Positions 8,779-49,704 of a stretch of DNA of 52,566 nucleotides are shown here, one piece after another; the first letter of the stretch is position 1; the number at the start of each line of letters is the position of its first letter. Made by a program: the position numbers and the translations under genes. The DNA is from a virus. The notes beneath the pieces were generated by a model. The model was not told the DNA's origin. It worked only from the letters and a program-made list of their open reading frames with translations, and made no database searches. The stretch lies in IMG/VR virus record IMGVR_UViG_3300048588_000115, positions 1-52,566 of that record; one strand, written 5' to 3'.

Positions 8779-9499
8779 AGCATATCATTATGAGCCATGC
8801 CCACGATGTCGTGAATTAGGTAATGATAATCGAGGAGATAATCTTGTTGTTTACTCCAATGGGCATAGCCATTGCTTTGCTTGTGGCTATCATAATTATC
8901 CAAAATATCATAAACCAACTACGCAAGAAGTATCTAATGTCCCAAAAAGTGTGCGCCCTTCTGACTTCACCAGAGAAGTCCCAGTTGAAGGATGGCAATG
9001 GCTCCTCCAATATGGACTCCCATACAGCCACTGGAAAGACTGTACCGGCTATTCTGAAGAAGCCGGACGAAGGCTTGTTTTCGAGGTTTCTGACAACGGC
9101 CGAGTGGCCTTTTCCATCGGACGACTGCTCGACGAAGCAACCAAACACTCAAGAAAATGGTATGTGTGGGGGGACTCACACAAGCACTGTCATGTTGTTG
9201 GACAAGGACGTGGTACAAGCACACTTCTGGTTGAAGACCTTATCTCTGCCCACAAAGTCGGAGAAGTAACCGAGGCGATACCTTTGTTTGGTACCACAAT
9301 TCACCCCTGTCATTTGTACTATTTAATGACAAATAACAGGCCCGTTGTGTTGTGGCTTGACAAAGACCAGGAGTTACATGTAAAGAAAAAAGCTCTACAG
9401 TTAGAGAGCTTGATTGATAAATCTGTTAAGATTATTACGACTGATAAAGATCCAAAAGCATTATCTTTTACACAAATAAAGGAATTAACAAATGAATAA
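8765..9499 (+). CDS. DNA primase (zinc ribbon + TOPRIM)
   Basis: CPRCRELG...HSHCFACGYH zinc ribbon, then TOPRIM-like LLVEDLISAHKV and VLWLDKDQ. Only TTG (8765 or 8771) is available as a start. Confidence 0.7.
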   Translation: MNLTKAYHYEPCPRCRELGNDNRGDNLVVYSNGHSHCFACGYHNYPKYHKPTTQEVSNVPKSVRPSDFTREVPVEGWQWLLQYGLPYSHWKDCTGYSEEAGRRLVFEVSDNGRVAFSIGRLLDEATKHSRKWYVWGDSHKHCHVVGQGRGTSTLLVEDLISAHKVGEVTEAIPLFGTTIHPCHLYYLMTNNRPVVLWLDKDQELHVKKKALQLESLIDKSVKIITTDKDPKALSFTQIKELTNE

Positions 9500-9740
9500 A
9501 TATACAAAATATCTTGGTGCACTACTTGTGCTTGTAGCAACAAATGCTGGTAATTTTTACTTCACAAAAAGCCATTATTATATGGCTGGAATGCAGGACT
9601 ACCATGGTGCTTGCTACTTTGTTCCTGGTGCAAGGCTTGACAACGACACAGGAACTGTGGTATACTGTTACCCGCTCGGTCAAGCAGACCCACGACAGCT
9701 TGAGCAAGAGCGTAAAAACACAGAGAAAAATACTACTTGA
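9492..9740 (+). CDS. small membrane protein, hypothetical
   Basis: The N-terminus YLGALLVLVATNAGNFYF is hydrophobic. ATGA overlap with the primase gene. Confidence 0.55.
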   Translation: MNKYTKYLGALLVLVATNAGNFYFTKSHYYMAGMQDYHGACYFVPGARLDNDTGTVVYCYPLGQADPRQLEQERKNTEKNTT

Positions 9741-9765
9741 CAAAGTAGGAAAAGTGTGTTATACT
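9737..9765 (+). promoter_or_regulatory. sigma70-type promoter: TTGACA-17 nt-TATACT with a TG extended -10
   Basis: TTGACA at 9737-9742 and TGtTATACT ending at 9765. AGGAG follows at 9782-9786. It lies at the start of a very AT-rich tract. Confidence 0.6.
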
Positions 9766-9794
9766 AAAAATATATAAACATAGGAGTATTATAT

Positions 9795-11054
9795 ATAATA
9801 CCTATTAAACAATTAATTATATTATTACTAAGTAAAGATAACTATAATAAATATAAAGACTTAGTAGATAATAAACATATAAAAGAAGTTTATAGAGAAT
9901 TAAGTTATATATATTCTTCTTTATGTGAATTACATGAGAAATATCCAAACAATGATATTTCCTTTGATGAGCTAGAAGCTTTCTTTTGGGTAAAGTACCC
10001 TACCGCTGACAAGGCTCTATACGCCAGCCTGCTTAAAAGCCTCTCAGAGCTGAAAATTTCGGATGAGGTAGGGCAGGGTATCATGTTGGAAATTAAAACG
10101 CGGGGTGATGCCTTAAAACTCTCGGAAGAGGCATACAAGGTAGCGCAGGGCCTTGCCGATCTAGAACATCTTCAGAATTTCTACTCTGAAGCCTTTGAGA
10201 AGGTCGATCACACAGCACTTGCTGATGAGATTACCGATGTTAATACTGTATTTATGGAGTTAATGTCTAATGCAGACACCAAACAAGGGATTAGATGGAG
10301 ACTTGACTGCCTTAACAAATCTTTGGGAAGTCTCAGGAGAGGTGATTTTGGATTCATCTTTGCACGCCCTGAGACTGGAAAAACTACTTTCCTTGCAAGC
10401 GAGGTATCTCACTTCCTTACAGACACAGGTGCGGCGCAGCGCGCGATTATCTGGCTCAATAATGAGGAGCAAGGATACAAAGTAATGTGTCGTGTGCTTC
10501 AGGCATACTTTGGCATTACTAATGATGTCCTTCTAAGTAATCTTAAACACTATTATGAGCGTTTTAATCACGAAACGTTCAACCGATTCAAACTATTTGA
10601 TGCAGCAACTATCAACAAAAGTGAAATCCTACGTCTTATCGAAAAATATGACCCCGGACTCGTGGTATATGATCAGATCACAAAGATTAAAGGCTTTAAG
10701 GCAGACCGCCAAGACCTTATGCTCGGAGAAATCTGTCAATGGTCTAGAGAACTTGCTAAAGGAGGTCACGCAGCCATCGGAGTATCACAAGCTGACGGAA
10801 CCGCAGAAGGTGTACGTTACCTCACTATGGAGCACGTTGCCAACGCTAAGACTGCTATGCAAGCTGAGGCAGACTTCATTCTAGGTATTGGTAAGATCAA
10901 CGATCCAGTGCAAGAATATATTCGCTTTCTTAACATCAGTAAGAACAAGCTATTTGGTGACACTGACTCTATTCCTGATCTTCGCCATGGTCGTTTTGAA
11001 GTGATGCTTGAGCCTCAAATAGCAAGATATAAGGACATTATTAAATTTGACTAA
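9795..11054 (+). CDS. DnaB/gp4-like replicative helicase (minimal ATG-initiated version is 10083..11054)
   Basis: Walker A GFIFARPETGKTTF and Walker B LVVYDQ. The frame is stop-free from 9768 with protein-like sequence, but has no ATG/GTG/TTG before 10083. ATA at 9795 lies 8 nt after AGGAG. The extended product is 419 aa. Confidence 0.6.
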   Translation: MIPIKQLIILLLSKDNYNKYKDLVDNKHIKEVYRELSYIYSSLCELHEKYPNNDISFDELEAFFWVKYPTADKALYASLLKSLSELKISDEVGQGIMLEIKTRGDALKLSEEAYKVAQGLADLEHLQNFYSEAFEKVDHTALADEITDVNTVFMELMSNADTKQGIRWRLDCLNKSLGSLRRGDFGFIFARPETGKTTFLASEVSHFLTDTGAAQRAIIWLNNEEQGYKVMCRVLQAYFGITNDVLLSNLKHYYERFNHETFNRFKLFDAATINKSEILRLIEKYDPGLVVYDQITKIKGFKADRQDLMLGEICQWSRELAKGGHAAIGVSQADGTAEGVRYLTMEHVANAKTAMQAEADFILGIGKINDPVQEYIRFLNISKNKLFGDTDSIPDLRHGRFEVMLEPQIARYKDIIKFD

Positions 11055-12190
11055 TGGAAAACATTTTAACATTTGACGTTGAAACCACTACATTTAACAA
11101 AGGACATCCTTTTGACAAAAGAAACAGTTTGGTCAGCTATGCTGAGCTATCTGGCAAACCCGATCCTAGTTTTAAATACTATCTCGATCCTGATTTTAAT
11201 AATTATCTCGCTGCTTGTGTGGATGATGCTGACATATGTGTGGGCTTTAACATTAAATTTGATTTTCATTGGCTATTTAATCTATTTCCTACGACAGATT
11301 TATCTAGAGTTAAAGTATGGGATTGCCAATTAGCAGAATTTATTTACTCTGGACAAGAAGCGCGTTATGCGTCACTTAATGAAACGTGTGAGAAGTATGG
11401 CCTACCAACTAAAATTGATTTGGTGGCGGATTACTGGTCACGCGGAATCGATACCAAAGACATTCCAGTGTCCATTCTTGAAGAGTACAATAAGTGGGAC
11501 GTGCAACTTACCAAAATGCTCTATGATGTACAACAACAACTGCTTAGTGAAAAGCAGAAAAGATTGGTGTGGTTACTAGGTGAAGACCTCAAGGCGCTAC
11601 AAGCTGCCGAGTATGCTGGTATTAAGTTTGATACTGACAAAGCACTTGCAACAATTGCGCAATATAAGGCTGACTTGGAAAGTATTGATCGTGATCTTTC
11701 TCAGTTTCTGCCTGATGGGATTCCTGAAGGCTGCTTTAATTACAATTCTGGGGATCATTTAAGTGTATTGCTCTACGGCGGGACGTTATCGTTTGATTGG
11801 GCCATTGAAGAACCAGCCGTATACAAGTCGGGGGAAAAGAAAGGTCAAGAATATATACGTCGACGGTGGCAAACTACACCCATTCAGTTTCAACAACACT
11901 TTAAACCGTTACCGGGAACAGAGGTTGCTAAAACTGCTAAACTCCCAGACGCGAAGCAACGCTTCTATCAAACTGACCAACCAACGTTCGCACAACTTAA
12001 GACGAAGAAACGTGAAAGTAAGTTACTATTGGAGTTGCTTACGATCCGTGCCAACAAGATTAAAGTGGTGGGAATGATTGAAAGTGTATTAAATTTGTTT
12101 GAAAATAAGCATTGGGCCGATGACTATATTCATGGGCAATTTAATCAAAATGTGGTAGTTACTGGTAGATTGAGTAGTTCTGCGCCTTAA
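11054..12190 (+). CDS. family-A DNA polymerase, exon 1 / N-terminal part (3'-5' exonuclease and start of the pol domain)
   Basis: Exo I motif FDVETT. It ends ...VVVTGRLSSSAP and then TAA, which is inside the conserved T-G-R-L-S-S-x-x-P-N-L-Q-N-I-P motif. Confidence 0.85.
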   Translation: MENILTFDVETTTFNKGHPFDKRNSLVSYAELSGKPDPSFKYYLDPDFNNYLAACVDDADICVGFNIKFDFHWLFNLFPTTDLSRVKVWDCQLAEFIYSGQEARYASLNETCEKYGLPTKIDLVADYWSRGIDTKDIPVSILEEYNKWDVQLTKMLYDVQQQLLSEKQKRLVWLLGEDLKALQAAEYAGIKFDTDKALATIAQYKADLESIDRDLSQFLPDGIPEGCFNYNSGDHLSVLLYGGTLSFDWAIEEPAVYKSGEKKGQEYIRRRWQTTPIQFQQHFKPLPGTEVAKTAKLPDAKQRFYQTDQPTFAQLKTKKRESKLLLELLTIRANKIKVVGMIESVLNLFENKHWADDYIHGQFNQNVVVTGRLSSSAP

Positions 12191-12886
12191 CAGATAGGGC
12201 GCTTTAAACCGTGTGAATTCATGGAAAGCCCAGAACGGGTAACCATGAGCCAAATTAACCAATCTACCTTCGGAGGTACATGTGGACATTAAGTATTTAA
12301 TTGAGAATACAGAATTAACACAAGCACAAATCGGTGCTGTGTTCGGATTATCACAAAAACAAGTGTCTAAATATATAAAAAGACACTATTCAAGCGAGTT
12401 TCGTAAGCACAGAAAAGTTAAATGCTATCGAAATTCAAAACTCGGAGATAAAAATCCGATGTTTAACATGCTTAAAGAAGATCATCACAATTATATCGGC
12501 GTTGTGTCAGACAACAAAGGTTATTGGATGATGTTGAAGCCAGAATGGTATACTGGTAGAAAGCGCAGCAAGCATGTGTTTGAGCATCATATTGTTGTTT
12601 GTGAGAATCTTGGTATTACAGAAATTCCGAAAGGGTTCTCTGTTCACCATTGTGACCATAATCCACGTAATAATTCCTTTAATAACTTAGTGTTGCTCCG
12701 TATGGGTGATCATACTCGTCTACACGGCGCATTAAAAGGTGCAACGACTATCTCGAAAGAGAGTACACTCAAGTGGGTGGAAGCGCACGGCACGCCTTGG
12801 TCGCGTGATGATATAGTCTCATCTGCATGGGGACATGCAGCAGCATATAGCGGGCAGGAAGTAACGACTCCTGCTGAAGATAAATG
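12188..12886 (+). mobile_element. putative group I intron carrying an HNH homing endonuclease ORF
   Basis: The 5' exon ends in U (12187). GCGCCU 12182-12187 pairs with GGGCGC 12197-12202, a P1 helix with a U-G wobble at the splice site. The last intron nt, 12886, is G. Joining 12187 to 12887 restores ...RLSSSAP-NLQNTP. Confidence 0.6.
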
Positions 12887-12887
12887 A
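12282..12887 (+). CDS. HNH homing endonuclease
   Basis: GTG start 5 nt after GGAGG. HHCDHNPRNNSFNNLVLLRMGDHTRLH is an HNH motif. The N-terminal HTH-like segment is LTQAQIGAVFGLSQKQVSKYIK. Confidence 0.8.
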   Translation: MDIKYLIENTELTQAQIGAVFGLSQKQVSKYIKRHYSSEFRKHRKVKCYRNSKLGDKNPMFNMLKEDHHNYIGVVSDNKGYWMMLKPEWYTGRKRSKHVFEHHIVVCENLGITEIPKGFSVHHCDHNPRNNSFNNLVLLRMGDHTRLHGALKGATTISKESTLKWVEAHGTPWSRDDIVSSAWGHAAAYSGQEVTTPAEDK

Positions 12888-12946
12888 ATTTACAGAACAC
12901 TCCACCCGAACTCGACGAATTACTTATTAGTAGATACCATGATTAA
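12887..12946 (+). CDS. family-A DNA polymerase, short middle segment (exon 2)
   Basis: NLQNTPPELDELLISRYHD followed by a stop. It begins exactly with the missing half of the PNLQN(I/T)P motif. Confidence 0.6.
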   Translation, partial: NLQNTPPELDELLISRYHD

Positions 12947-13103
12947 AACAATCGAAATTGCGCCGGATATCTTAGCAAAAGCTCTGGCACACCATTTATT
13001 TGATGAGTTTGGTACAATTCGTGACCGTGAAGGTCAAGATGTATTATTCGTCACTGACGTAGTGGATTTATATAATGTAATTAAGGAGTACTTGAATCGC
13101 TAA
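12939..13103 (+). CDS. hypothetical 54-aa ORF inside the second polymerase interruption
   Basis: Hand-translated: MIKTIEIAPDILAKALAHHLFDEFGTIRDREGQDVLFVTDVVDLYNVIKEYLNR. It lies in the +1 frame relative to the pol segments. Confidence 0.4.
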   Translation: MIKTIEIAPDILAKALAHHLFDEFGTIRDREGQDVLFVTDVVDLYNVIKEYLNR

Positions 13104-13813
13104 TCAATGCCGATGTAAAAAGCCTTGAGGTATTTGTAGCAGCAGATCGATATGATGATAAAACCTTACAGTCTGAGCTTCTTAACCGCTTGGACCTTCA
13201 TGCGCTCAACCAAGAAAAGTTTGCATTACCAGACCGAGTTACCGCCAAGCGTTTCATCTTCAAGCTCTTATATGGAGCGACTGCCTATGGCTATTCGGTG
13301 GATTCAGACTTTATCAACGTTGGCTTTAGTGAAAAGCAATGGCAACGAGTTATTGATGTGTTCTACACAAAATATGATGGGATCGCCAAAGGACATATCG
13401 CTGACATAAACTACGCTAAAGAAAACGGATATCTGGAAATTCCGTCCGGTAGATACTACAACTTTGAGCCAAAGAAAACATCTTATGGATATAAGTGGCC
13501 GTTAACACTGATTAAAAACTACCCTATTCAGGGGTTTGGCGCTGATCTTGTGATGCTTGCTCGTATTGAGTTTTTCCGTCGGCTTAAGGCGTCAGGTTTA
13601 CCAGCAGATTTTATTTGTACGGTGCATGACTCATTAGTAGTTGACACACCCGACGAACTGTGTTATAATATTAGTACGATGTTAAAAGATTCAATCGAAC
13701 TGGTTCCAACACTCTGCCGTCAGGAATTCGACTATGAGTTCAAGTTACCAATTTGGTGTGAGATAAGTGTAGGTCCAAACAAACGCGATCTACAAGAGAT
13801 TAAACTTAATTAA
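13085..13813 (+). CDS. family-A DNA polymerase, C-terminal part (palm and fingers)
   Basis: The frame opens at 13085. NADVKSLEVFVAAD resembles motif A, RVTAKRFIFKLLYGATAYG resembles motif B, and ICTVHDSLVVD resembles motif C. There is no ATG or GTG; the first TTG is at 13190, after motif A. Confidence 0.8.
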   Translation, partial: GVLESLINADVKSLEVFVAADRYDDKTLQSELLNRLDLHALNQEKFALPDRVTAKRFIFKLLYGATAYGYSVDSDFINVGFSEKQWQRVIDVFYTKYDGIAKGHIADINYAKENGYLEIPSGRYYNFEPKKTSYGYKWPLTLIKNYPIQGFGADLVMLARIEFFRRLKASGLPADFICTVHDSLVVDTPDELCYNISTMLKDSIELVPTLCRQEFDYEFKLPIWCEISVGPNKRDLQEIKLN

Positions 13814-18618: not shown

Positions 18619-20300
18619 TGCACGTTAACCGATTTAAAACAGAATTTGCAGAAACTATTTTTAGGACAAAATATGCTCAAGGACCAAACGACAGTTGGGA
18701 TGCACTCGCCGATAGGCTCGTTGAGGATGTCTGTGGAACTCGATGGGGAACTCAGCCAGCACTCATGTCCGACGGAGATCGCAAAGAGCTTGCTGAACAC
18801 ATTAAGAACATGCGGTTTCTTCCGGGAGGAAGATATCTATATTATGCCGGTCGCCCCTACAAAGCCTACAACAATTGTTATCTACTGCGAGCAGAAGAAG
18901 ACACCCGAGAAGAATGGAGCAACGTAACATGGCGTGCAATGAGTTGCTTAATGACTGGTGGAGGTATTGGAATTGACTACAGCCGACTTCGCCCGTCTGG
19001 AAAACCTTTATCACGAACTGGTGGCGTCGCTAGTGGTCCTATCCCTCTCATGGAAGCAATCAACGAAGTGGGCCGCCGAGTTATGCAGGGAGGATCTAGG
19101 CGATCCGCAATCTACGCTAGCCTCAATTGGCAACATGAAGACATTCCTGACTTCCTTAGAAGCAAGAATTGGACGGATGAAGTAAAGGCTCTTAAAGAAA
19201 AAGACTTTAACTTCCCTGCTCCACTGGATATGACCAATATCAGCGTTAATTATGATGATGCTGCCCTAGGCGATGTTGTTTATCATGGGGATAACTGGCC
19301 TGACGTTATACACGAACTAGCTGATAATAAAGTCTTTCTAGAAAACTGCCGTCAGGCTATGATGACTGGTGAACCAGGGTTCTCATTTAACTTTGGAGAT
19401 AAACAGAATGAAACGCTACGTAATGCTTGCACCGAGGTTACTTCTGAGGATGATTCTGATGTTTGTAATCTGGGTTCGATTAATCTTGGAAACATTACTT
19501 CATTGGATGAGTTCAAGACTGTCACCGCACTTGCTAGCAAATTCCTTGTATGCGGAACACTCCGAGCTGATCTCCCTTACGAAAAGGTCTATAAAGTCCG
19601 CGAGAAAAACCGTAGACTCGGTTTGGGCCTCATGGGCATTCACGAATGGCTCCTCCAACGAGGACAAAAATACGAGGTAACAGATGAACTTAAGGAGTGG
19701 TTAAATGTATATCGATCCGAGTCTGAAACAGCAGCAAATGAACATTGCGATAGATTCTATATTTCGCGCCCAGTGGCTTATCGAGCAATCGCTCCGACTG
19801 GAACTATCGGAATTCTCGCCAGTACAACGACGGGAATTGAGCCATTGTTTGCGGTGGCTTATAAGAGACGTTTCCTTACTGATGGAACGAAATGGAAATA
19901 TTCCTATGTCGTCGATGCAACCGCAGACCGACTCATCAAAGAGTACGGACTAAAACCAGAAAGTATTGACACAGCTTATAAGCTAAGTCACGATTATGAA
20001 CGACGAATCAAATTCCAAGCAGACATTCAAGATTACGTTGACATGTCAATTAGCTCTACCATCAACCTCCCATCTTGGGGTAGTAAAGGGAATAGCGAAT
20101 CAGATGTTGGTAGATTCACAGCTACTTTGGCACAATACGCTCCCAGACTGCGTGGATTTACCTGTTATCCAGATGGAAGTCGAGGAGGTCAACCAATTAC
20201 CGAGTGTGACTACGAAGACGCCATCAAACACAAAGGAGCCGTCTATGAGGAGCACGACATCTGTGACATCAGTGGGCACGGTGGAAGCTGCGGAGTCTAA
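18618..20300 (+). CDS. ribonucleotide reductase, probably class II (nrdJ-like)
   Basis: FLPGGR, GGGIGIDYSRLRPSG, GGVASGPIPLM, GGSRRSAIYASL, NACTEV, CNLGSINL and the C-terminal Cys pair CDISGHGGSCGV. There is no separate beta-subunit gene in the genome. Confidence 0.75.
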   Translation: MHVNRFKTEFAETIFRTKYAQGPNDSWDALADRLVEDVCGTRWGTQPALMSDGDRKELAEHIKNMRFLPGGRYLYYAGRPYKAYNNCYLLRAEEDTREEWSNVTWRAMSCLMTGGGIGIDYSRLRPSGKPLSRTGGVASGPIPLMEAINEVGRRVMQGGSRRSAIYASLNWQHEDIPDFLRSKNWTDEVKALKEKDFNFPAPLDMTNISVNYDDAALGDVVYHGDNWPDVIHELADNKVFLENCRQAMMTGEPGFSFNFGDKQNETLRNACTEVTSEDDSDVCNLGSINLGNITSLDEFKTVTALASKFLVCGTLRADLPYEKVYKVREKNRRLGLGLMGIHEWLLQRGQKYEVTDELKEWLNVYRSESETAANEHCDRFYISRPVAYRAIAPTGTIGILASTTTGIEPLFAVAYKRRFLTDGTKWKYSYVVDATADRLIKEYGLKPESIDTAYKLSHDYERRIKFQADIQDYVDMSISSTINLPSWGSKGNSESDVGRFTATLAQYAPRLRGFTCYPDGSRGGQPITECDYEDAIKHKGAVYEEHDICDISGHGGSCGV

Positions 20301-20337
20301 TTGGGGAAGTGATTGGGTAGATGATGGAGTATAAACT

Positions 20338-20784
20338 ATAACAACAATCGCAGTAAATAAGAACATGATGGCGGGAGACCGCCAGTTCACAAAGGATTCG
20401 ATTAAGCTTATTGGTCGTACTAAAATCTACGAAGTCCCTGGTGATATTGTTGGCGCTAAACGATTGTTTGTTGGCTTTGCAGGTAGGGCTGATCAGATCG
20501 GACCATCAGTTATGTGGCTATTAAATCCTGCTGAAAAACCACATAAGCTACGTGATACTGAGATTATTGGTCTTACAGACAAAGGTGAGATATTACACAC
20601 ACAGGACTTAGTTAATTGGATTGAGCTAACGCAAAAGTTCTTTGCAATTGGGAGTGGTGCTGGTTTTGCTATCAGCGCGATGGAGTGTGGTAAAGATCCT
20701 GTGGAAGCAATCAAGGTAGCAAGCAAGTATGACTTACAAACTGGAAAGGGTTATACGAAACTCATAATGAATGAGACAAAATAA
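20338..20784 (+). CDS. HslV-like Ntn (proteasome-type) peptidase (ATG-initiated version is 20365..20784)
   Basis: (ATA)-TTIAVNKNMMAGDRQ...KI...GFAGRADQ...AIGSGAGFA parallels E. coli HslV MTTIVSV..AGDGQ..KV..GFAGGTADA..AIGSGGPYA. GGAG at 20326-20329 lies 8 nt before ATA 20338. A stop lies two codons upstream. Confidence 0.6.
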   Translation: MTTIAVNKNMMAGDRQFTKDSIKLIGRTKIYEVPGDIVGAKRLFVGFAGRADQIGPSVMWLLNPAEKPHKLRDTEIIGLTDKGEILHTQDLVNWIELTQKFFAIGSGAGFAISAMECGKDPVEAIKVASKYDLQTGKGYTKLIMNETK

Positions 20785-20808
20785 AAGGGGCCTTTCGGCC
20801 CCTTTTTA
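20783..20808. terminator. bidirectional rho-independent terminator between the convergent arms
   Basis: AAAA-GGGGCC-TTTC-GGCCCC-TTTTT: a perfect 6-bp GC stem flanked by an A-tract and a T-tract. Confidence 0.85.
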
Positions 20809-21189
20809 ATAACTCCAAATGTTAGGTCGTATACTAGACTTCACCAAATCAAGATGTATGAATCTACTATTACCTTGTTGGCTCACACCAACACCTGTGA
20901 AGCCCATTGTAATGGCTAAACCAACTAGACGATGTGCATCGGCACCACGAACACTAATATCAGCCGCAAGCCCTTGAGCATGCGGCCCAATACCAGTCTT
21001 TGTACGCTCCTCAGGATGGTTTCGATTACGGAAACCAGACGTAATCTTCATAGGTTTGTTGTACACACTACGTAGCTGTTGTAACTTATCCATAAAGGCT
21101 TCCAGCATAAAGTTCTCACCAGAGAATTTACAATCAAACTCCGCCTTAGTAAAGTTTTTGTACTTTGACCAGTCTTTTACAACACTCAT
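20806..21189 (-). CDS. endolysin, zinc peptidase M15 family (VanY/M15A-like)
   Basis: SGFRNRNHPEE, GPHAQGLAADI and IHLD fit an H/D/H metal-binding pattern. It is the last gene of the late arm. Confidence 0.65.
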   Translation of the reverse strand: MSVVKDWSKYKNFTKAEFDCKFSGENFMLEAFMDKLQQLRSVYNKPMKITSGFRNRNHPEERTKTGIGPHAQGLAADISVRGADAHRLVGLAITMGFTGVGVSQQGNSRFIHLDLVKSSIRPNIWSY

Positions 21190-24100
21190 TGTTGATATCC
21201 TTCATAACGACGCACACCTTGTGGTGATTTTGGTATACCCTGGGCACGCTCTTTAGAAGTCTTAGCAGCTTCCATATGAATCTGCGGAATCTTCTTAAGT
21301 AGATGTGTTGGATCACCACCAAGCTTCTCATACTTTGTAAGTAGCTCTTGTTGTTGTTCGGGTGTACCTTTGTTAATAATTAAGTCAGACCATTGCTTTG
21401 ACAACTCAGTTAAGTTATCAATACGCTGGCGCTCATTCTGACGATTCTGATATAGCTCATTCCGCTTACGTGCTTCGTCTAGCGGTACTAAACCAGTTGT
21501 GGCTGCCTTCTTCCATTCCTGCTCAGTACGCGGAACATCTACCTGTCCTTGTTTGTTAAGTAGATTACCCTGCTCATCCCGCTTTACAGCCATCCGAGTT
21601 GCTTGCTTCCATCCTGATGGTGTTGCATCAACTGCAAGATTAGCAAACGAATTCTCATTTGGATTAGTAGCAGCGGTAACTGCACTCTCAGCAATATCAT
21701 ATGCACCAGATAAATGTGGGAACGCGCCCTTCATAAATGAGTCTGGGACCATATCGGCGGCACTAAACTTACCCTGCATATTAAGACCGAGTAAACTGGA
21801 AACAACACCAGTCTTCATATATTCGGGAACATCCTTCATAAAGTCTTGTGCAATCGTGCGACGCTCGTCTGTTACTTCTTCACGAAGTTGTTGATATAGA
21901 TAATCAATGCTATCATAGAATACAGTACCCGTAATACCTGCAAACATTAACATTTGTAAGGCCCCAAGCATTAATGGAATTGAGTTGCCTTTACCAGCTT
22001 CTTTAGCAAGAAGCACATGTGTTCCTGCATAGTTATGTTTAAACGTAGTAAGTCCGCCAGCGTGTGGTGCTAGTACACCAAGTCCACTATACATAAGAGG
22101 GCGCTCCCACTGATGATAATCAGCCATAATTTGGTTAGTGATATTTTCAGCAACTGGTAGCACCTTATTTAAATCAGGTTCAACTTGCTTCAACATATCA
22201 ACAACAGCCAAGAACATCGGTGGGCGGGTAATGTTTTCCCCCATCTGCATTGACCACTCAGCAACGTGATCATAAGCACGACCAACAGTTGTTTTATGTC
22301 CCTCATAAGCACGCTCTAGTTCAGTGAAGTCAAGAATTCCCCGGTCACGTGCCCATTGAAACACCTGTTGCAACTCAGCATCTACTGGAAATTGAAATTT
22401 CACTCCATTCTGTTTAAACATATTATTCATAGATAACTTGAAGAACTGTGGAACAGAATTCGCCATTGCTTTAGTGGCGGCATGTGGGGGCAGTCCAACA
22501 CGTTGGGCTAACATTGTCATCATGGGCACACCAGTTTGAACCGGCTGTGCTAGCTGGGAAGCTGTGAACATCCAGTTAAACCAACCCATGTACATTTGTG
22601 CCATTTTGTTTTTAACAGTGTTAGATAACTTAATAGCATTACCTGGACCAACATAGTTACGCACACCTGGAATACGGCTTGATACACCTTCAACTACAGC
22701 ACTACTCGCGTTAAAGATAGCATTCATAACACGGCCACCATCGTGGATATAACTACCTGTTACATTACGATAATAGTCATCTAAATACTTCTTTGCGTTA
22801 GGCATGTGTTGTGTGCTCTCATCAGCCGTAAGAAGACGTAGTTCTTCTGCTGGTTTTTGTAGGGCATGATGCTCTGCTGCTTCTTCAAAATAACGCACAA
22901 TCGCATCTAAGCGATCACGCGCATTCTTCTCCGGCGACAGCCAAGGCTTATTACCAAGATTCCCGGTAATGCCTTTCTTACGCATGTTATGCACATCGTG
23001 TCCAAACAACTCGGTGGCTGCACGAACGGCGTCAAGCTGAACTTTGTTCTGAAGTTTAGCAAAATCCCCATCAGCATTAGATAGTAGTTTAATCATAGAG
23101 CTTAGATCGCTATAGCGAATAGCTTTACGATTTCCACCAGATATACTACGACGAGCATCCTGCCATTTCTCAGCGCTAAACTTAGCGTCTGGATTACTTT
23201 TCTTGTAGTACTCCACTGCTAGCGCAAACTCCCCTGGACTTGACGCAGAAATAAATCCGATAGGATCACCATTCTTATCAAGAACAAGTGAGTGATAGTC
23301 ACCACTCCAAATAGAAGCTGTATATCCTTTACGCTTAGGAGCAGACTTAACGCCCTGCTCACCACGGATTTGACTAATCCAGTCCCACTCAGCATCGCTA
23401 GTCTTTTTCAGTTGCTCCATGAAAGCAACACCATTTTTAGAAAGACCAATCTGCTGTCCAATTTCAGGTGTAAAGTCCACCTGGTGCTTATCCATCATTG
23501 TAAGTAGCTCAGCAATCTTTACACGTTCTGTAGCATCCATGTTTGTGATTAAAGGACTTAAACCACCTTCAGCAGTAATATAGTCTTTTGAGAACTTTGC
23601 AGCGTCACCACGAGCTTTGTTAAATAAGTGCCGTGCATACTTAAGCAGTGAGTTATTGTGGTATGCGGCCATAAAGTTATTACCAGGTGCCACACCACGT
23701 GAATATGGATTAGACTTAATATCCTTCTCATTTTTAATTAAGCTGACCGCCTCTTCAAAAGTAGTAGGATCAGTCCACTCCGGCATTTTTGTACCTAGAA
23801 TATCAGAGGTCGCCTTTACTTTTTTAACCTTGTCTTGTTTTTCGGCAAGCATACTAGGTGTAACTGGTGTTTCAATAGAATCTTTCGGTGTACCAAAGCG
23901 ATTACGTAGATTCTTAATACCTTCTTCAATATCTTTGACACGTAAGGCACCAGCTTGTGATCGACCTATCCCTCCAGACATAGTGGCACGCACAGGCTCA
24001 TCATATAATGAGCGAATTTTATTATCATCCCATGTTACGAAGGACTTTGTGTATGCTTGATTAGCAGCCAGTGTGCGCGCACGTTGCGGTGTTTGATGCT

Positions 24101-33342: not shown

Positions 33343-34538
33343 TATATACTAATTCCAATTTGTAGACTAATTGTGTTACCATTATAATTTATTGTAGCAG
33401 GTTCTCCACTCCAACGCAATGTGGCATTACGCCCACTTAATGTGTATATTCCACGTTCCGCTGTTAATGCATAACTACCCGGAACACTATGAACAAATGT
33501 TACATCTTGCCCCGTTAGTGTGTATGTGCCGGTAAGAGCAATACGACCTAAGCTATAATATGCTTGTTGTCCACTAATACTATATGAACCACTATCGGCT
33601 GTGAGTGTGGAAACACCAGATGTGGTCGTGAACTGCGCCGACGTAACGATGTTGGAATCGTTCGCTGCCGCGTCCGTGTGGATCAGGTGCGCGTAGTAGC
33701 CGGTGCTCGCTGTCAGGCCGGTGGCGTTGAGCGTCTTGGCGCCCGTGCTGCTGACGGCCACAGAATCAGCCCACACGGCGCCCGTGCCGGCCTTCAGGTC
33801 CGTCGCGCTCGGCGGCGTGGCCGAGGTGCTGACGAAGGCGTACAGCGTGCCGTTGCCTTCGTCCGTCGTCGCTCCGACCGTCGCCGTCGTGCTGCCGGTG
33901 GCTGTGCCGGTGGGGCTGCTCAGGACGGGGGCGGTGGTGTCGCCGCCGCCAAGCGTCTCGGCTAGGAAATTGTCGTAGTGATATCCAGTGGTGTTGGTCG
34001 ACGCGGCGTTGTCCCGCAAGCCAGCCTTGCCAGCGGCGGTGATGGCTGAATCGGTGGCGCTGATCGCGGCCGACCCCTCGCCGAGCTTGTATAGCTCGAT
34101 GGCGCTGCCGTTGACTCGCAATTCCACAGCGTAACTGGTGCTCGTCGAGACGGTCTGTGCAACGTTCGAGCCCAATTGGGTATAGGTGCCCGCGACTCGC
34201 TTGTAGAGCTGCCAGTTAGCGCTGCTTCCAGACGAGAACGCAAGCCTGGCTTCGTAGTAAGTCAGCGCGCTTGTGTCCATGCGGGCGCACACCCCGGGGG
34301 CGTTTCCGCTGACGCCAGCGCCTGCCACGTAGATGTCTGCCTTGACAGAGTAGTCAGCGCTCGGTGGCGTCTCTGCCCGGTAGATCACGCAGTTGGTGCC
34401 GTTGCCGCGTGCGCGCTCGTCATTGGTGATGCGGAACCCGTTGCCGGCGCCCGGATGATTTACCCAGTTCGCGTCATGGTCCGGCAGGGTGTCTCCATCG
34501 GAACTTCCAGCGAATGCATCGGCGGCAATGACTGTCAT
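33342..34538 (-). CDS. chimeric structural / receptor-binding-like protein (GC-rich 5' part, AT-rich 3' part)
   Basis: 398-codon ORF. It has a T/S/A-rich Ig/Fn3-like middle and C-terminal repeats SGSYSISGQ / TGTYTLTGQ / GIYTLSGR. The composition step is near 33.62-33.66 kb. Confidence 0.5.
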   Translation of the reverse strand: MTVIAADAFAGSSDGDTLPDHDANWVNHPGAGNGFRITNDERARGNGTNCVIYRAETPPSADYSVKADIYVAGAGVSGNAPGVCARMDTSALTYYEARLAFSSGSSANWQLYKRVAGTYTQLGSNVAQTVSTSTSYAVELRVNGSAIELYKLGEGSAAISATDSAITAAGKAGLRDNAASTNTTGYHYDNFLAETLGGGDTTAPVLSSPTGTATGSTTATVGATTDEGNGTLYAFVSTSATPPSATDLKAGTGAVWADSVAVSSTGAKTLNATGLTASTGYYAHLIHTDAAANDSNIVTSAQFTTTSGVSTLTADSGSYSISGQQAYYSLGRIALTGTYTLTGQDVTFVHSVPGSYALTAERGIYTLSGRNATLRWSGEPATINYNGNTISLQIGISI

Positions 34539-35785
34539 TTTGTTCCCCGGATCGCTGTGGAGTACGACTCATACGACGAGTACACGCCAGCCCACCACAG
34601 GGCGCGCGTGCCACCGCTTACGCCACCATCAACGCCAATGGGCCGACAGTTGCGCATGCTTGACGCGCCGCCGCTGGTGACGTCGCGCAGTTTCGACCAC
34701 GACGATCCGCCGTCAGCCGTTGACCATTCGCTGAGTTCCCACGCACCGCCGGCCTGTTGGATGCTGGCGAACGCTTTGGCCGGATCGCCTCGATCCAGAG
34801 CCCCGCCGCCGGAGTAATAGGACTCCGATGAGTACAACCTCCCACCCATCGCGCACACTTCCGACGTTGACCACGAGCCGCTGACACACTTTGCGTAGCG
34901 CAGACGGTGGTCTGTCGTGGCGTTTGGAAATGTCGAATACAGCGCGTGGATCACGCCGTCCTTCACGAGCAGATCCCATACCCACGAGCGGTTCGCGCCT
35001 CCGGTGTGCACGAGCGTCGCATCTGCCGGCGTGATTGGACCGCTTCCAATGAGCGTGCCGTCGCTCTTGTAGAACAGCTCTGCGCCCGAGCCGTCAAGTT
35101 GCATGTAGACGTGGTAGACCGATGAATTCCCCTGGTTGGGATGCATATCGGTGAAGAACAGGTCGATCCTGTTCACGCCGTTGCCAACGCTCTTGACGTA
35201 AGGCCGCGTGCTGGCGTTGTCCAGCCAGGTGCGCTCCGCGTCCCACGTCCCGGCCGTCACGTCATACGCCCGAACGTTGATCGGGTTCGTCCCAACGCCT
35301 CCCGCGCCACTGCGGTAATGCAGGTACACCTTGTCGGTCTGGCTCAAGTAATATGGATTGCTGTACGTCGCAGGCGTCGTCACCGTCAGCGCCGCCGTAG
35401 AGCCCCACGCGCTGATGTCTTCTGCGTTCGTGCTGATGCGGTAGCGAGTGCCGCCCGTGTCGTTGTGCAGCGAGTAGGCTGAGAAAATGCGCCCGTCAGG
35501 CAAGAAGCAGAATCCTCCGTTGTTGTGGTCGTTCTGCTGCGTCAGTGCGTGAATTGTGGCTTCTGCTGTATCCCCGCTGGACTCGACACGCCTTGCCATG
35601 CACACGTTGCCATTGGCCTTGACGTACTGCGCGTATGTTGCGCCGTTGCGGTAGATCGCGCGCCGGTCTGAGAACCACGTCCAGATGCCGTCTGGCGCCA
35701 CCTCGTATTGAGCGGGTGCAGGCGCGTCCCTCCCCGCCCACAGGTCATCAGAATTCCTTACAAATAATGTATAATTATTCGCCAT
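34535..35785 (-). CDS. BNR/Asp-box beta-propeller-like protein (sialidase/lyase-like, depolymerase candidate)
   Basis: Asp-box TADGGSSW and repeated W/Y-rich blades. GC-rich body after an AT-rich first ~13 codons (MANNYTLFVRNSD). ATGA coupling downstream. Confidence 0.45.
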   Translation of the reverse strand: MANNYTLFVRNSDDLWAGRDAPAPAQYEVAPDGIWTWFSDRRAIYRNGATYAQYVKANGNVCMARRVESSGDTAEATIHALTQQNDHNNGGFCFLPDGRIFSAYSLHNDTGGTRYRISTNAEDISAWGSTAALTVTTPATYSNPYYLSQTDKVYLHYRSGAGGVGTNPINVRAYDVTAGTWDAERTWLDNASTRPYVKSVGNGVNRIDLFFTDMHPNQGNSSVYHVYMQLDGSGAELFYKSDGTLIGSGPITPADATLVHTGGANRSWVWDLLVKDGVIHALYSTFPNATTDHRLRYAKCVSGSWSTSEVCAMGGRLYSSESYYSGGGALDRGDPAKAFASIQQAGGAWELSEWSTADGGSSWSKLRDVTSGGASSMRNCRPIGVDGGVSGGTRALWWAGVYSSYESYSTAIRGTK

Positions 35786-36207
35786 TATGCTAGTGTGAAA
35801 ATACCGTTACTTGCATCAAAGTCAACAGAGAAAGATTCCCCATTGGCAAGTGTTAATGAACTAGCATAGTCCCAGAAAGCGATTAGTGGGGATGTGCTAG
35901 CGGTACCAGTATCCTTATATAAAACTGCATAACGGAATGGACCAACAGCACCAGATGCGTTCCATGTGACATCTGTGCCAACTACTTTTGCGGTACCAGA
36001 TGATGTGCTAACAGTAATTGTAGTTGCTGCACCGCCCGCAGTATAGCCATTACCTGCGGATATTTCCGTAATATCGTCAAAGAAGTCATCAGTTGCAGCA
36101 GTGGGGGCGGTATTGGTGAGTGCTACTTTAAATGTATCCGCATCCCAATCGATGCCACTGATGAGTTGTTTTTCTGTGAATGCTTGAAATTTAGTATATG
36201 TTGCCAT
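35785..36207 (-). CDS. hypothetical virion-associated protein
   Basis: 140-codon ORF with TAATG coupling. Confidence 0.5.
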   Translation of the reverse strand: MATYTKFQAFTEKQLISGIDWDADTFKVALTNTAPTAATDDFFDDITEISAGNGYTAGGAATTITVSTSSGTAKVVGTDVTWNASGAVGPFRYAVLYKDTGTASTSPLIAFWDYASSLTLANGESFSVDFDASNGIFTLA

Positions 36208-39742: not shown

Positions 39743-40087
39743 TTATTCCTTATCTAAGACTGCTACAAAGTCTTCGTCATTTAACACAACGCACTCTTCT
39801 TTAGTATAGGGGTTTGTAACTAATTTACCAGAACCCTTAACATATGTGACAATATTACCAACTTCAATTGGAATATCAATGTTAAAGTCACGGAATGCGG
39901 TACTACCAATTGCAAGAACTTCTCCTACATCAACACTCAATGCCGCACGATTTTTATCGGCGCCAGTCGACTCGATTGGGGCTAATTCTAGGCCCATAGC
40001 TTTTGCTCGGCGTCGGCCATCATCCCAATCATCCACACTTAGTGGTTTTACAGCTACACGATGTAGTAAAACTTTAATAGTTTTCAT
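39743..40087 (-). CDS. GroES-like co-chaperonin
   Basis: MKTIKVLLHRVAVKPL parallels GroES MKIRPLHDRVIVK. Later GEVLAIGS and EVGNIVTY, with a C-terminus DEDFVAVLD. The ORF track starts at TTG 40111. Confidence 0.5.
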   Translation of the reverse strand: MKTIKVLLHRVAVKPLSVDDWDDGRRRAKAMGLELAPIESTGADKNRAALSVDVGEVLAIGSTAFRDFNIDIPIEVGNIVTYVKGSGKLVTNPYTKEECVVLNDEDFVAVLDKE

Positions 40088-40243
40088 CTTGTTCTGAAGA
40101 CTCCTCTTCAATTAATTCCATCGATAAGAAATCGTTTACAGCGGCAATATAACCGCAACGAAAACGATCCTCGGCGGGGTTTTGTCCCGCATAAAGCATA
40201 AGGTACGTTGTCAGTTCCTCTGCTCTATTCTTCCACCCTGAAA

Positions 40244-45343: not shown

Positions 45344-45344
45344 G

Positions 45345-45464
45345 TCAGGCCGCGCCGATGATTGGCGTCACGGGCCAATGGCCGGCGAACGTGTTGTAAG
45401 CGCTACCCAAGGACGTGCCGTCTCCATTGCTAGATGCCTGCGGATTGACGTACTGAAGTGCCAT
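45345..45464 (-). CDS. 39-codon GC-rich ORF resembling a beta-helix protein N-terminus (possible remnant)
   Basis: MALQYVNPQASSNGDGTSLGSAYNTF... parallels the WYVRPD...RDGTSYATAW of the next gene. TAATG coupling upstream and TGAcATG downstream. Confidence 0.4.
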   Translation of the reverse strand: MALQYVNPQASSNGDGTSLGSAYNTFAGHWPVTPIIGAA

Positions 45465-45955
45465 TATTCAACCATTACATCAATAGTAGCAGTGCCAGAA
45501 ATAACTACGTGACAACCAGTTGAATTAATACGACGGCCACCAGTACCTACACCAGCAGTAGCATGATCACCATCCCAGTAATAAGTACCAGTCGTGATAT
45601 TAGCCACTGTCATGATGGCTGTGCCAGTGGCACTAGTTGCATCATAGATCGTAACATCAGCAGTACCACCAGATTCAGAGCGAACTACGAATCCACGGAA
45701 TTCACAGGCACCACTAACAGCGGTGTCAGTTGCAGTTAACGTAACAACGGCGACAGCTTCAGATAAAGCATATACGCCACCATCACCATCAAGCAAATAA
45801 CCACTACTATTGATGGTACCAAGGACATTCCAAGATGTACCATCAGAATGGTATAAAGCCCCAGTATCTAACGCTTGGGCCAGTGCACCCTTGTTTGCAG
45901 TAGCATCAGGGAAATCAGCGAATGTGGCTTTAACGTATTTACCGGAGCGAATCAT
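45464..45955 (-). CDS. hypothetical beta-rich protein
   Basis: 163-codon ORF. Confidence 0.5.
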   Translation of the reverse strand: MIRSGKYVKATFADFPDATANKGALAQALDTGALYHSDGTSWNVLGTINSSGYLLDGDGGVYALSEAVAVVTLTATDTAVSGACEFRGFVVRSESGGTADVTIYDATSATGTAIMTVANITTGTYYWDGDHATAGVGTGGRRINSTGCHVVISGTATIDVMVE

Positions 45956-45958
45956 AAT

Positions 45959-46117
45959 TTACTTCTTTGCGTCTTCAGACTTGGCTGCTTGTTTAGCAGC
46001 TTCATCCATTGCAACACCTACAGCGGCGGCAGTGTTTGCATCTTTATTTGAAGCACCAGCAGCTTTAGCCTGCGTTCGTAAATTCAAATACATTAGGAAT
46101 GTGTTCCAAAAACTCAT
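45959..46117 (-). CDS. hypothetical small protein (52 aa)
   Basis: Hand-translated: MSFWNTFLMYLNLRTQAKAAGASNKDANTAAAVGVAMDEAAKQAAKSEDAKK. AAGGAAA RBS. Confidence 0.45.
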   Translation of the reverse strand: MSFWNTFLMYLNLRTQAKAAGASNKDANTAAAVGVAMDEAAKQAAKSEDAKK

Positions 46118-46405: not shown

Positions 46406-46443
46406 GTATGGGATTTTGTCATCTCCTTGTCACCCTTACGGCA

Positions 46444-49619: not shown

Positions 49620-49704
49620 CCCCGAATGGTGTAATTGGTAGCCACATCAGCCTTAAAATCTGATGCCGTAAGGCGTGCCGGTTCGAGTCCGGCTTCGGGG
49701 ACCA
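49620..49704 (+). tRNA. tRNA-Leu (anticodon UAA), type II with a long variable arm, CCA encoded
   Basis: Hand-folded. Acceptor CCCCGAA/TTCGGGG, D arm GTG..CAC with GG, anticodon loop CTTAAAA, variable arm GCCGTAAGGCGT, and T arm GCCGG-TTCGAGT-CCGGC, then ACCA. Confidence 0.8.

Follow-up and report, generated by a model that had tools for sequence, protein, structure and literature searches.

The locus at 9.8 kb of the window (the whole 52,566-nucleotide stretch of viral DNA analysed here, IMG/VR record IMGVR_UViG_3300048588_000115) raises the question of where translation of a DnaB-like replicative helicase gene begins, the open frame of that gene extending far upstream of its first canonical start codon. 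The features at issue are these:

9637–9666, plus strand: upstream sigma-70-type promoter-like site (TTGACA-18-TATACT, TG before the −10 box; 11 of 12 matches)
9737–9765, plus strand: promoter-like site directly 5' of the helicase gene (TTGACA-17-TATACT, TG before the −10 box; predicted)
9765–9767, plus strand: in-frame TAA closing the helicase frame on its 5' side (read from the sequence)
9768–9940, plus strand: AT-rich zone of ~16% GC (16% over 9740–9920), spanning the leader plus the first ~50 codons of the helicase gene
9782–9786, plus strand: helicase Shine-Dalgarno sequence (SD) AGGAG, 8 nt before ATA 9795
9795–9797, plus strand: ATA, proposed helicase start codon (alternative, ATA 9798–9800, 11 nt from the SD)
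9795–11054, plus strand: DnaB-like replicative helicase gene, full length (419 aa plus stop; predicted)
10083–10085, plus strand: ATG, first canonical start of the helicase frame, which gene callers pick (323 aa)

The helicase frame is free of stops from 9768 to 11054 and contains no in-frame ATG, GTG, or TTG in the 105 codons upstream of ATG 10083. An earlier note on this DNA had described this open frame, the AGGAG at 9782–9786 with ATA 9795 at 8-nt spacing and ATA 9798 next to it, and products of 419 aa (from 9795) vs. 323 aa (from 10083); all were verified in the window sequence, the sizes by recomputation. The expectation that stops should occur in so AT-rich a stretch is likewise borne out: the other five frames of 9768–10082 contain 3–17 stops each, the 174-nt AT-rich part of the helicase frame is stop-free in 0.07% of shuffles, and 105 codons without a canonical start occur in 0.8% of shuffles. 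By these comparisons, chance would not readily produce such an open frame. When the whole window was scanned, no real gene other than the helicase gene had an open extension of at least 100 codons that lacks a start.

Three lines of evidence indicate that the extension is coding. The first comes from homologs: the 96-codon extension aligns with helicases of 413–418 aa that cover 98% of the open frame, and in the alignment to homologous helicases that the earlier note had proposed, homologs begin within one codon of 9795, not at 10083. The extension, moreover, has dN/dS values of 0.08–0.24, vs. 0.07–0.14 for the rest of the gene (five lineages). In an AlphaFold model, residues 1–117 are helical (pLDDT ~78–91 for residues 1–90), and Foldseek matches the model over its whole length to full-length DnaB chains (440–475 columns, E = 1e-16, TM 0.5–0.6); the predicted model has the N-terminal helical domain and the linker helix to the C-terminal domain that mark DnaB. 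The RecA-like C-terminal domain contains the invariant Walker A motif ARPETGKTT and matches Pfam AAA_25 at 30.2 bits (cut-off 27) and DnaB_C at 25.2 bits, just under the cut-off of 27. Since full-length homologs, dN/dS like that of the rest of the gene, and a confident helical N-domain model agree, we conclude that the extension, which the earlier note had read as protein, is real coding sequence and, as judged from homology and modelling, the N-terminal domain of a DnaB-type helicase.

If the extension is coding, a codon other than ATG, GTG, or TTG has to be considered as its start. We surveyed 71 related helicase loci, with rule-based SD calls and start assignments, and with calls for three ambiguous loci (L047, L084, and L089) corrected by hand; ATH denotes ATA, ATT, or ATC (H = A, T, or C) and is the same set as AUH. 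Before hand-correction, the best start was ATG in 25 loci, ATA in 17, TTG in 11, GTG in 7, ATT in 6, and ATC in 5; after hand-correction, 25 of the 71 loci have an ATH start and no canonical start. The ATH codon of these 25 loci occupies, position for position, the place of ATG, GTG, or TTG in other loci. An SD of at least 4 nt at a spacing of 4–10 nt precedes the start in all 25 ATH loci, vs. 2 of 26 loci with ATG and 11 of 18 with GTG or TTG (Fisher p = 1.5e-12 for ATH vs. ATG), and several ATG loci have a −10 box 6–8 nt upstream of the start and look leaderless. The presence of ATA or ATT would by itself be weak evidence, because both are common at 16% GC; the argument depends on the SD and the alignment. 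The pairing of SD with ATH agrees with published findings that an SD helps initiation at near-cognate codons and that leaderless mRNAs need AUG (PMC8459731).

Comparison with individual relatives points to the same codon. Homolog N-termini read M-x-I-P-E-K-Q-L, and the window reads ATA ATA CCT ATT AAA CAA TTA. The codon aligned to the window's helicase start is TTG in two loci (L101, L102), ATA in two (L008, L010), and ATT in one (L006). Four independent close relatives are also without a canonical start near the conserved N-terminus, and the codon aligned with the start is ATA or ATT in all of them; one of the four has a TTG, which lies just four codons before its called ATG. Elsewhere in the family, ATC TAC CTA CCT GAA (L025) corresponds codon for codon to ATG TAC CTA CCT GAA (L040), and an in-frame TAA lies immediately 5' of an ATT start (L044). 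Homologs carry one extra residue before I-P, such that the strictly aligned Met position in the window is TAT 9792; on SD spacing alone, ATA 9795 would be favoured, ATA 9798 being the less likely start.

The third base of the start codon varies. Of the 16 loci sampled from the window's clade, ten have A there, three have T, and C and G occur once each; the remaining locus was read as either ATT or ATA. Local base composition is A 49%, T 35%, G 10%, and C 6%. At least nine switches between ATH and a canonical start occur on the helicase tree. From these sequence comparisons, the third base appears to drift freely among A, T, and C given a strong SD, and members without an SD keep ATG.

The region around the helicase start has the elements expected for expression from a short leader. 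The promoter that the earlier note had placed upstream of the SD is confirmed at 9737–9765, as a prediction from its consensus match, and predicts a leader of ~22 nt; 13 of the 25 ATH-start relatives have promoter-like sites (at least 10 of 12 matches) 20–40 nt upstream of the proposed start. The site at 9637–9666 scores equally, and its consensus match suggests promoter function. The RNA fold of 9772–9860 is weak (−6.5 kcal/mol), and a special RNA structure at the helicase start was rejected, the fold energy being like that of shuffles (z = 0.45). The AT-rich 5' end of the gene is common to the family regardless of start codon; because relatives with ATG starts are equally AT-rich there, the idea that AT-richness compensates for a weak start was also rejected. 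An unlikely reading is that the AT-rich, promoter-proximal zone is a replication origin or DNA-unwinding element, in which case the G-poor start codon would be part of a DNA-level constraint; a search of the zone for iterons or origin repeats returned short two-copy repeats at chance level only, and GC skew tracks gene orientation and has no feature at 9.8 kb.

The helicase gene is not the only gene in the window with this arrangement. Two further loci, an HslV/BPH-like protease gene and a small minus-strand gene, are as follows:

20326–20329, plus strand: SD GGAG of the HslV/BPH-like gene, 8 nt before ATA 20338
20338–20784, plus strand: HslV/BPH-like Ntn-hydrolase gene (start ATA 20338, 148 aa)
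46121–46414, minus strand: gene for a small, possibly HNH-like protein in which a His/Asn pattern is conserved (start ATC 46414)
46428–46423, minus strand: SD AAGGAG of the 46414 gene, 8 nt upstream of ATC 46414

In the HslV/BPH-like frame, TAA 20332–20334 closes the 5' side and the first ATG is at 20365. ATA 20338 aligns exactly with Met1 of homologs (M-T-T-I-A-V), and the codon before T-T-I-A-V is ATA in three lineages (the window, L091, and L093), TTG in L094 and L096, and ATG in L097; the recurrence of an SD, 8 nt, and ATA at this gene, which the earlier note had pointed out, thus holds in the window and in relatives. A five-sequence profile matches BPH 5ovu (E = 7.7e-5) and several HslV chains (E ~1e-3). 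The protein has no Pfam match, so the relationship is distant. Thr directly follows the initiator position, (ATA)-T-T-I-A-V, and, by analogy with the family, this N-terminal Thr would be the catalytic nucleophile. The minus-strand gene reads (ATC)-P-Y-M-K-N-G-E-R-D-Y and its homologs read M-P-Y-M-x-N-G-K-R-D-Y, placing ATC exactly at Met1. In none of the three genes (helicase, 20338, and 46414) does a canonical in-frame start lie in the stretch from the upstream stop to the conserved N-terminus. At least three genes of this 52-kb genome, ~6% of its genes, most likely have ATH starts; a fourth candidate, ATC 40301, has AAGGAG 8 nt upstream, and no homologs of it were found. The window also contains an HNH gene within a split DNA polymerase.

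The window also encodes a tRNA with a CAT anticodon:

50337–50412, plus strand: phage tRNA, anticodon CAT (elongator, AUA-reading tRNA-Ile2 type)

The first base pair of this tRNA is G1:C72, its anticodon stem lacks a G-C triplet, and in E. coli it best matches genes annotated as tRNA-Ile. Because these features and matches are elongator-type, a phage-encoded initiator tRNA for AUA was rejected. An Rfam scan of the window returned two tRNAs only and no intron family, and an intron or ribozyme supplying an upstream exon was rejected on that result. Related genomes are Zobellviridae-like, and the cultured relatives infect Betaproteobacteria. No nucleotide match of the window to known phages was found, and IMG/VR scans yielded few helicase loci and none related to the HslV/BPH-like protease gene. 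Assigning a host from matches to bacterial and archaeal genome bins was rejected, since the matches span unrelated phyla and thus reflect mis-binned phage contigs.

Three explanations would dispense with initiation at ATA altogether. That only the 323-aa protein is made from ATG 10083, the upstream stretch being an untranslated remnant of a longer gene, would suit the fact that ATG 10083 is the first canonical start and that callers choose it or its equivalents. However, purifying selection acts on the extension as on the rest of the gene, the extension is open at 16% GC and models as a DnaB N-terminal domain, Met 10083 is unconserved (homologs have Leu at the equivalent position), an SD before ATG 10083 was looked for and not found, and the downstream canonical start picked by callers differs in position from one relative to the next. 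ATG 10083 is probably not the true start, and production of the short protein only is very unlikely. Recoding, in which an upstream ORF supplies the N-terminus by frameshift or readthrough, or AUG arises in the RNA by splicing, editing, or slippage, could draw on an 82-aa ORF at 9492–9740 in the helicase frame, on an ORF at 9544–9777 that overlaps the beginning of the helicase open frame, and on mobile elements in the genome such as the HNH gene. Two in-frame stops (9738–9740 and 9765–9767) and a promoter nevertheless separate the 82-aa ORF from the helicase gene; upstream neighbours vary among relatives (Thy1, a NinX-like gene, primase) and the SD-plus-ATH arrangement is constant; the window has no Rfam intron match; and full-length homologs require nothing 5' of M-x-I-P-E. 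Nothing points to the RNA-level recoding that the earlier note had listed, and we regard it as highly improbable. The base-call or modification artefact also raised there, taken here to include sequencing and assembly error and to conceal a true ATG, would need one G-to-A miscall to make ATA from ATG. The same arrangement, however, recurs in independent assemblies (ENA, JGI, Logan, GenBank), the homologous codon is also found as ATT and ATC, neither of which can result from a G-to-A artefact, miscalls would not yield a correlation with SD strength, and most other window genes start with ATG (39 of ~52); an artefact is the least credible of the three, with next to no chance of being correct.

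A further explanation refines initiation at ATA rather than replacing it. The weak start may be a selected regulatory device that puts translation under the control of initiation fidelity (the ratio of IF3 to ribosomes, ppGpp or nutrients, or a phage factor), like the infC AUU start. ATH is kept across the whole clade despite saturated synonymous divergence (pS 0.6–0.7) and occurs in three unrelated genes of one genome, and ppGpp and a shortage of nutrients have a stronger effect on mRNAs with non-AUG starts, as IF3 has on those starting with AUU (PMC5499595). Against selection, the third-base counts approximate local base composition, such that drift alone would suffice, and the start has switched repeatedly on the tree; we consider a selected device possible but unlikely. 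Still more doubtful, as a broader speculation, is that third-base discrimination at initiation is relaxed in these phages or their hosts and that the phage makes a programme of it, the helicase, the protease, the small, possibly HNH-like protein, and perhaps the DNA polymerase C-terminal half, with ATC 13103 as its candidate start, being efficiently made only at lowered fidelity (a drop in IF3 per ribosome, or a phage factor), or else that the AT-rich zone is to be read as an origin.

The explanation that we favour, and hold to be highly likely from the comparative evidence, is SD-assisted near-cognate initiation by the initiator tRNA, producing a 419-aa, two-domain DnaB-type helicase from ATA 9795 or, less likely, 9798. 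Most likely, the helicase and at least two other genes of the genome start at ATA or ATC instead of ATG, in accordance with the repeated use of a non-canonical initiator that the earlier note had suggested and that the helicase gene, ATA 20338, and the related loci support. For the helicase we infer promoter use, initiator tRNA decoding, and expression level. A host sigma-70-type promoter at 9737–9765 would yield a helicase mRNA with a short leader; AGGAG would pair with 16S rRNA and, its spacing of 8 nt being optimal, bring ATA into the P site; initiator fMet-tRNA would decode AUA despite the third-position mismatch; and the A/U-rich, nearly unstructured surroundings of the start would aid complex formation. 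The HslV/BPH-like gene (ATA 20338) and the small minus-strand gene (ATC 46414) would use the same mechanism. That AUA is a very poor initiator in E. coli, as the earlier note had it, is true only with qualification: an AUA mRNA (infA) in an optimised initiation region is translated in vitro approximately as well as an AUG mRNA (PMC5499595), which, together with the weak fold of 9772–9860, makes AUA initiation biochemically plausible. In vivo, AUA starts have often been reported as inefficient; a T4 rIIB AUG-to-AUA mutant, for one, lost ~85% of translation (cited in PMC5499595).

Near-cognate initiation is a known mechanism; what is unusual here is its frequency and the systematic mis-annotation that results. 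Annotated AUA, AUU, AUC, and CUG starts make up 0.004–0.024% of bacterial starts (PMC5499595), and here an essential replication gene has ATH starts in ~35–40% of a widespread environmental podophage family. Because gene callers accept only ATG, GTG, and TTG, they cut off the helicase N-terminal domain, as in GenBank MW202697 and many database entries of 299–376 aa, and in the protease homolog they also drop the N-terminal threonine, the putative catalytic residue. Alignments of the family that rest on truncated entries are consequently wrong, as are domain calls and structure predictions made from them. The family provides a natural series on SD strength vs. tolerance of weak starts, running from strong SD with AUH, through no SD with AUG, to leaderless-like AUG. 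It also suggests a rule for gene rescue: a strong SD followed 5–10 nt on by an in-frame ATH that heads a conserved open frame.

Phage T7 gene 4, which yields gp4A and gp4B from two in-frame starts, both canonical and conserved, resembles the window helicase gene in encoding a phage replicative helicase with more than one in-frame candidate start. Unlike in T7 gene 4, the internal ATG in the window is unconserved and without an SD, and a two-product design is therefore unsupported. A literature search on natural AUA/AUU starts in phage helicases found nothing specific. Mycoplasma and mitochondria use AUA, AUU, and AUC as regular starts (PMC5499595; PMC8459731); the SD sites, predicted sigma-70 promoters, and intact frames under code 11 offer no hint of a system of that kind here. 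The infA AUA mRNA and T4 rIIB AUG-to-AUA mutant indicate that bacterial ribosomes initiate at AUA in a strongly context-dependent manner (PMC5499595), but those are laboratory constructs and mutants, whereas the phage helicase ATA is a natural, conserved start. E. coli infC and pcnB have natural AUU starts read by the initiator tRNA (as summarised in PMC5499595) and, like the window genes, are SD-led and differ from AUG at the third base only. They are single, deeply conserved cases, whereas AUA is the commonest near-cognate start in the phage helicase family and members differ in having A, T, or C at the third base; and the infC start is tied to IF3 autoregulation, and that of pcnB is thought to hold expression low, whereas for the phage family a regulatory link is hypothetical. 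In Caulobacter crescentus, AUC, AUU, and AUA starts occur on leadered mRNAs and leaderless mRNAs start almost exclusively with AUG, the tolerance of near-cognate codons being attributed by the authors to SD/anti-SD stabilisation (PMC8459731). The Caulobacter cases are cellular genes identified by ribosome profiling, and the phage case is comparative only and far more frequent (~35–40% of the family, and ~6% of the genes in this one phage genome). The Caulobacter split is nonetheless mirrored in the helicase family, where the SD accompanies 25 of 25 ATH starts vs. 2 of 26 ATG starts.

The helicase frame had been described in the earlier note as open from 9768 with no ATG, GTG or TTG until 10083, with a promoter ending at 9765, AGGAG at 9782-9786 and in-frame ATA codons at 9795 (8-nt spacing) and 9798; all of these elements are confirmed on the window sequence:

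9637-9666: second promoter-like site, an equally good match, 100 nt upstream of the first
ending at 9765: first promoter-like site, sigma-70-type, a near-consensus match (TTGACA-17-TATACT, with TG preceding the -10 box)
9765-9767, + strand: in-frame TAA closing the helicase frame
9768 to the stop at 11052-11054, + strand: open helicase frame
9782-9786, + strand: Shine-Dalgarno (SD) sequence AGGAG
9795 (8 nt past the SD) and 9798, + strand: in-frame ATA codons
10083, + strand: ATG, first in-frame canonical start (ATG, GTG or TTG), 105 codons into the open frame

The open frame is not of chance origin. The remaining five frames of 9768-10082 contain 3-17 stops per frame, the frame stays stop-free across the AT-rich 174 nt in just 0.07% of shuffles, and the 315 nt as a whole are without any canonical start in just 0.8% of shuffles. 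No other real gene anywhere in the window has an open, start-less extension this long (at least 100 codons). GC content falls to about 16% at 9740-9920, vs. about 42% in the rest. Positions 9637-9940 hold tandem near-consensus sigma-70-type promoter-like sites and then a zone of ~180 bp and 16% GC, comprising the leader and the first ~50 helicase codons; the AT-rich 5' end and promoter are kept family-wide, irrespective of start-codon type. This layout is reminiscent of a transcription-activated origin or of a DNA-unwinding element; a search of the AT-rich helicase 5' end for iterons, other repeats or a skew signal marking an origin found none.

The extension reads as protein, as had been proposed from the sequence. 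With the 428-codon open frame as query, we obtain thousands of homologs, many of 413-418 aa and covering 96-98% of the frame, with N-termini of the form M-x-I-P-E-(K/Q)-x-L-L; the window N-terminus is Y(9792)-I(9795)-I(9798)-P-I-K-Q-L-I-I-L-L-L-S-K-D-N-Y. Alignment to homologs, the check that the earlier note had suggested, places Met1 near ATA 9795 and shows that Met 10083 is not conserved, because Leu occupies that position in homologs. For the window and four relatives (71-78% identity), dN/dS is 0.08-0.24 in the extension vs. 0.07-0.14 in the remaining gene, with synonymous sites close to saturation. For the 419-aa protein, AlphaFold gives a model with a mean pLDDT of 78, in which residues 1 to ~90 are helical at pLDDT about 78-91, and Foldseek matches the model to full-length DnaB structures over 440-475 columns (E about 1e-16). 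From the homologs, purifying selection and structural matches, we conclude that the extension is the N-terminal domain of a DnaB-type helicase, a domain that would be missing from a 323-aa product started at ATG 10083.

The nearest database proteins (72-80% identity) are all annotated short (299-376 aa). In the DNA of these relatives, the 80-120 codons before the called ATG are open, protein-conserved and 15-22% GC, with no canonical start close to the conserved N-terminus (one has a TTG just four codons ahead of its called ATG), and the codon aligned to Met1 of full-length homologs is ATA or ATT. A further 80 loci came from one scan of metagenome contigs; frames were found by tblastn and extended to the upstream stop, and N-termini were aligned.

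Best start codon at 71 usable helicase loci
ATG: 25 loci
ATA: 17 loci
TTG: 11 loci
GTG: 7 loci
ATT: 6 loci
ATC: 5 loci

Hand correction of three ambiguous calls gives 25 loci with ATA, ATT or ATC (ATH), 26 with ATG and 18 with GTG or TTG. AAGGA, AGGAG, AAGGAG or GGAGG lies 5-10 nt ahead of the in-frame ATH in all 25 ATH loci. The clearest cases are GGAGG-9-ATC TAC CTA CCT GAA in L025 vs. ATG TAC CTA CCT GAA in L040, and ATA ACT ATA CCA GAA in L010, ATA TCT ATA CCA GAA in L008 and TTG GTA ATA CCA GAA in L101 and L102, the closest relatives with canonical starts. Another is locus L044, where an in-frame TAA immediately precedes ATT, so that the open frame begins with this ATT. In GenBank MW202697.1 (1949-3031), GGAG-8-ATA heads the conserved open frame; since that frame has no canonical start, the annotated helicase CDS is missing 46 codons. 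Both cultured relatives examined, Alcaligenes phage QDWS535 and Methylophilales phage MEP401 (Zobellviridae), have ATG starts. Helicase relatives L103-L118 lie on 40-55 kb contigs in MAGs of unrelated phyla (Saccharibacteria, Thaumarchaeota, Bacteroidota, Ktedonobacterales and others); these contigs are almost certainly of phage origin and were mis-binned. This phage group often has mobile elements in its replication module; the 52-kb relative L101 carries a ribonucleotide reductase large subunit with an intein and LAGLIDADG domain (19114-21254) and an HNH gene immediately downstream of the helicase.

The SD-ATA arrangement recurs, as the earlier note had observed, at an HslV-like gene:

20332-20334, + strand: TAA closing the frame of the HslV/BPH-like gene

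The TAA is followed by ACT ATA(20338) ACA ACA ATC GCA GTA, with the first ATG 9 codons further on. The codon immediately ahead of the conserved T-T-I-A-V is ATA in the window and in relatives L091 and L093, all three with GGAG 7-8 nt upstream, TTG in L094 and L096, and ATG in L097. A family profile matches BPH (the beta-proteobacterial proteasome homologue; E = 7.7e-5) and HslV. In BPH and HslV enzymes the nucleophile is the threonine that follows the initiator Met; the start must therefore be precisely ATA 20338, and removal of an initiator Met ahead of Thr would expose the putative nucleophile. The spacer at 20301-20337 carries GGAGTATAA, a motif with which the upstream ribonucleotide reductase gene of L093 ends (final codons plus stop); the spacer resembles a duplicate of that gene's 3' end which has come to supply the SD.

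A scan for a strong SD and in-frame ATH upstream of genes' first canonical starts identified ATC 46414 on the minus strand (AAGGAG-8-ATC CCA TAC ATG). Where homologs read M-P-Y-M-x-N-G-K-R-D-Y-K-K-E, the window has (ATC)-P-Y-M-K-N-G-E-R-D-Y-K-K-E; for this small protein (46121-46414, minus strand), with a conserved His/Asn pattern that is possibly HNH-like, ATC 46414 is the most likely start, and gene callers choose the ATG three codons downstream. For a further candidate gene, a homolog search found none:

40074-40301, - strand: 75-aa ORF, with AAGGAG 8 nt ahead of candidate ATC 40301

This ORF occupies the space between two genes of the structural module, with an overlap at the end of the upstream one. 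The minus-strand structural module also contains GC-rich islands (57-63% GC, in a genome of about 42% GC) at 34000-36000, 44000-46000 and 48000-49000. At 11054-13813, a family A DNA polymerase is split in two, its ORFs separated by an HNH endonuclease gene (12282-12887). In relatives the C-terminal half begins M-L-I-N-A-D-V-K-S-L-E; in the window it has no canonical start before TTG 13190, which would cost it the conserved D-V-K-S-L-E motif, and its sole in-frame near-cognate codon is ATC 13103, 14 nt downstream of AAGGAG (13083-13088). ATC 13103 is a possible fourth ATH start, but another explanation may apply. Start codons in an approximate list of 52 window genes are ATG (39), TTG (6), GTG (4), ATA (2) and ATC (1).

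The phage encodes two tRNAs:

49620-49704: tRNA-Leu(UAA)
50337-50412: tRNA with anticodon CAT

The best E. coli matches of the latter are genes annotated tRNA-Ile, which identifies it as the AUA-reading tRNA-Ile2 type; as this is an elongator, a phage initiator tRNA for AUA was rejected. TTA and ATA, the codons of the two tRNAs, are enriched in the AT-rich helicase start (7 of 9 Leu, 4 of 7 Ile); genome-wide, ATA accounts for only 9% of Ile codons.

The earlier note had offered repeated use of a non-canonical initiator, RNA-level recoding, or a base-call or modification artefact at ATG. An artefact at ATG is excluded: many independent assemblies show the same arrangement, ATT and ATC occur at the homologous codon, ATG starts are normal elsewhere in the window, and SD presence correlates with ATH starts. 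Also excluded is that the helicase is a pseudogene or that the short form alone is made, given purifying selection on the extension and its predicted structure. Nothing supports an N-terminus provided by upstream ORF fusion or RNA-level repair: two stops and the promoter-like site separate the upstream ORF from the helicase, SD-plus-ATH is constant in relatives while upstream neighbours vary, and an Rfam search gave no intron match. Repeated non-canonical initiation is supported by the helicase relatives, ATA 20338 and ATC 46414. The results support a helicase start at ATA 9795, preferred to ATA 9798 on SD spacing alone, and point to SD-assisted near-cognate initiation, a known kind of mechanism.

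In a neighbour-joining tree, the window falls inside a clade with almost only ATH starts (16 sampled members: ATA 10, ATT 3, ATC 1, ATG 1, and L015, readable as ATT or ATA), and across the family the tree requires a minimum of 9 changes from ATH to canonical starts or back. Within the clade, the third start-codon base roughly follows local composition (A 49%, T 35%, G 10%, C 6%), a pattern that near-neutral drift behind a strong SD would yield; selection for a weak start therefore cannot be claimed. What is unusual is the frequency of near-cognate starts within one essential phage gene family and one genome; the consequence is systematic truncation of annotations at genes with ATH starts.

SD presence (4 or more nt, 4-10 nt upstream) by start codon, helicase loci
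ATH: 25 of 25
ATG: 2 of 26
GTG or TTG: 11 of 18

SD presence differs sharply between ATH and ATG loci (Fisher's test, p = 1.5e-12). In seven ATG loci a near-consensus -10 box ends 6-8 nt ahead of the ATG, which suggests leaderless mRNAs, and other ATG loci adjoin an in-frame TGA; in ATH loci, the conserved promoter-like site ends 20-40 nt upstream, with space for an SD-bearing leader. An AUA mRNA with an optimised initiation region was about equal to an AUG mRNA in in vitro translation and ribosome competition, strong reductions were seen in other contexts, and ppGpp and nutrient limitation affected non-AUG starts more (PMC5499595). Leadered mRNAs of Caulobacter include some with AUC, AUU or AUA starts, leaderless mRNAs are much more AUG-selective than leadered mRNAs, and SD/anti-SD pairing is thought to aid near-cognate initiation (PMC8459731). 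The split between SD and start codon in the helicase family agrees with this published behaviour of leadered vs. leaderless mRNAs.
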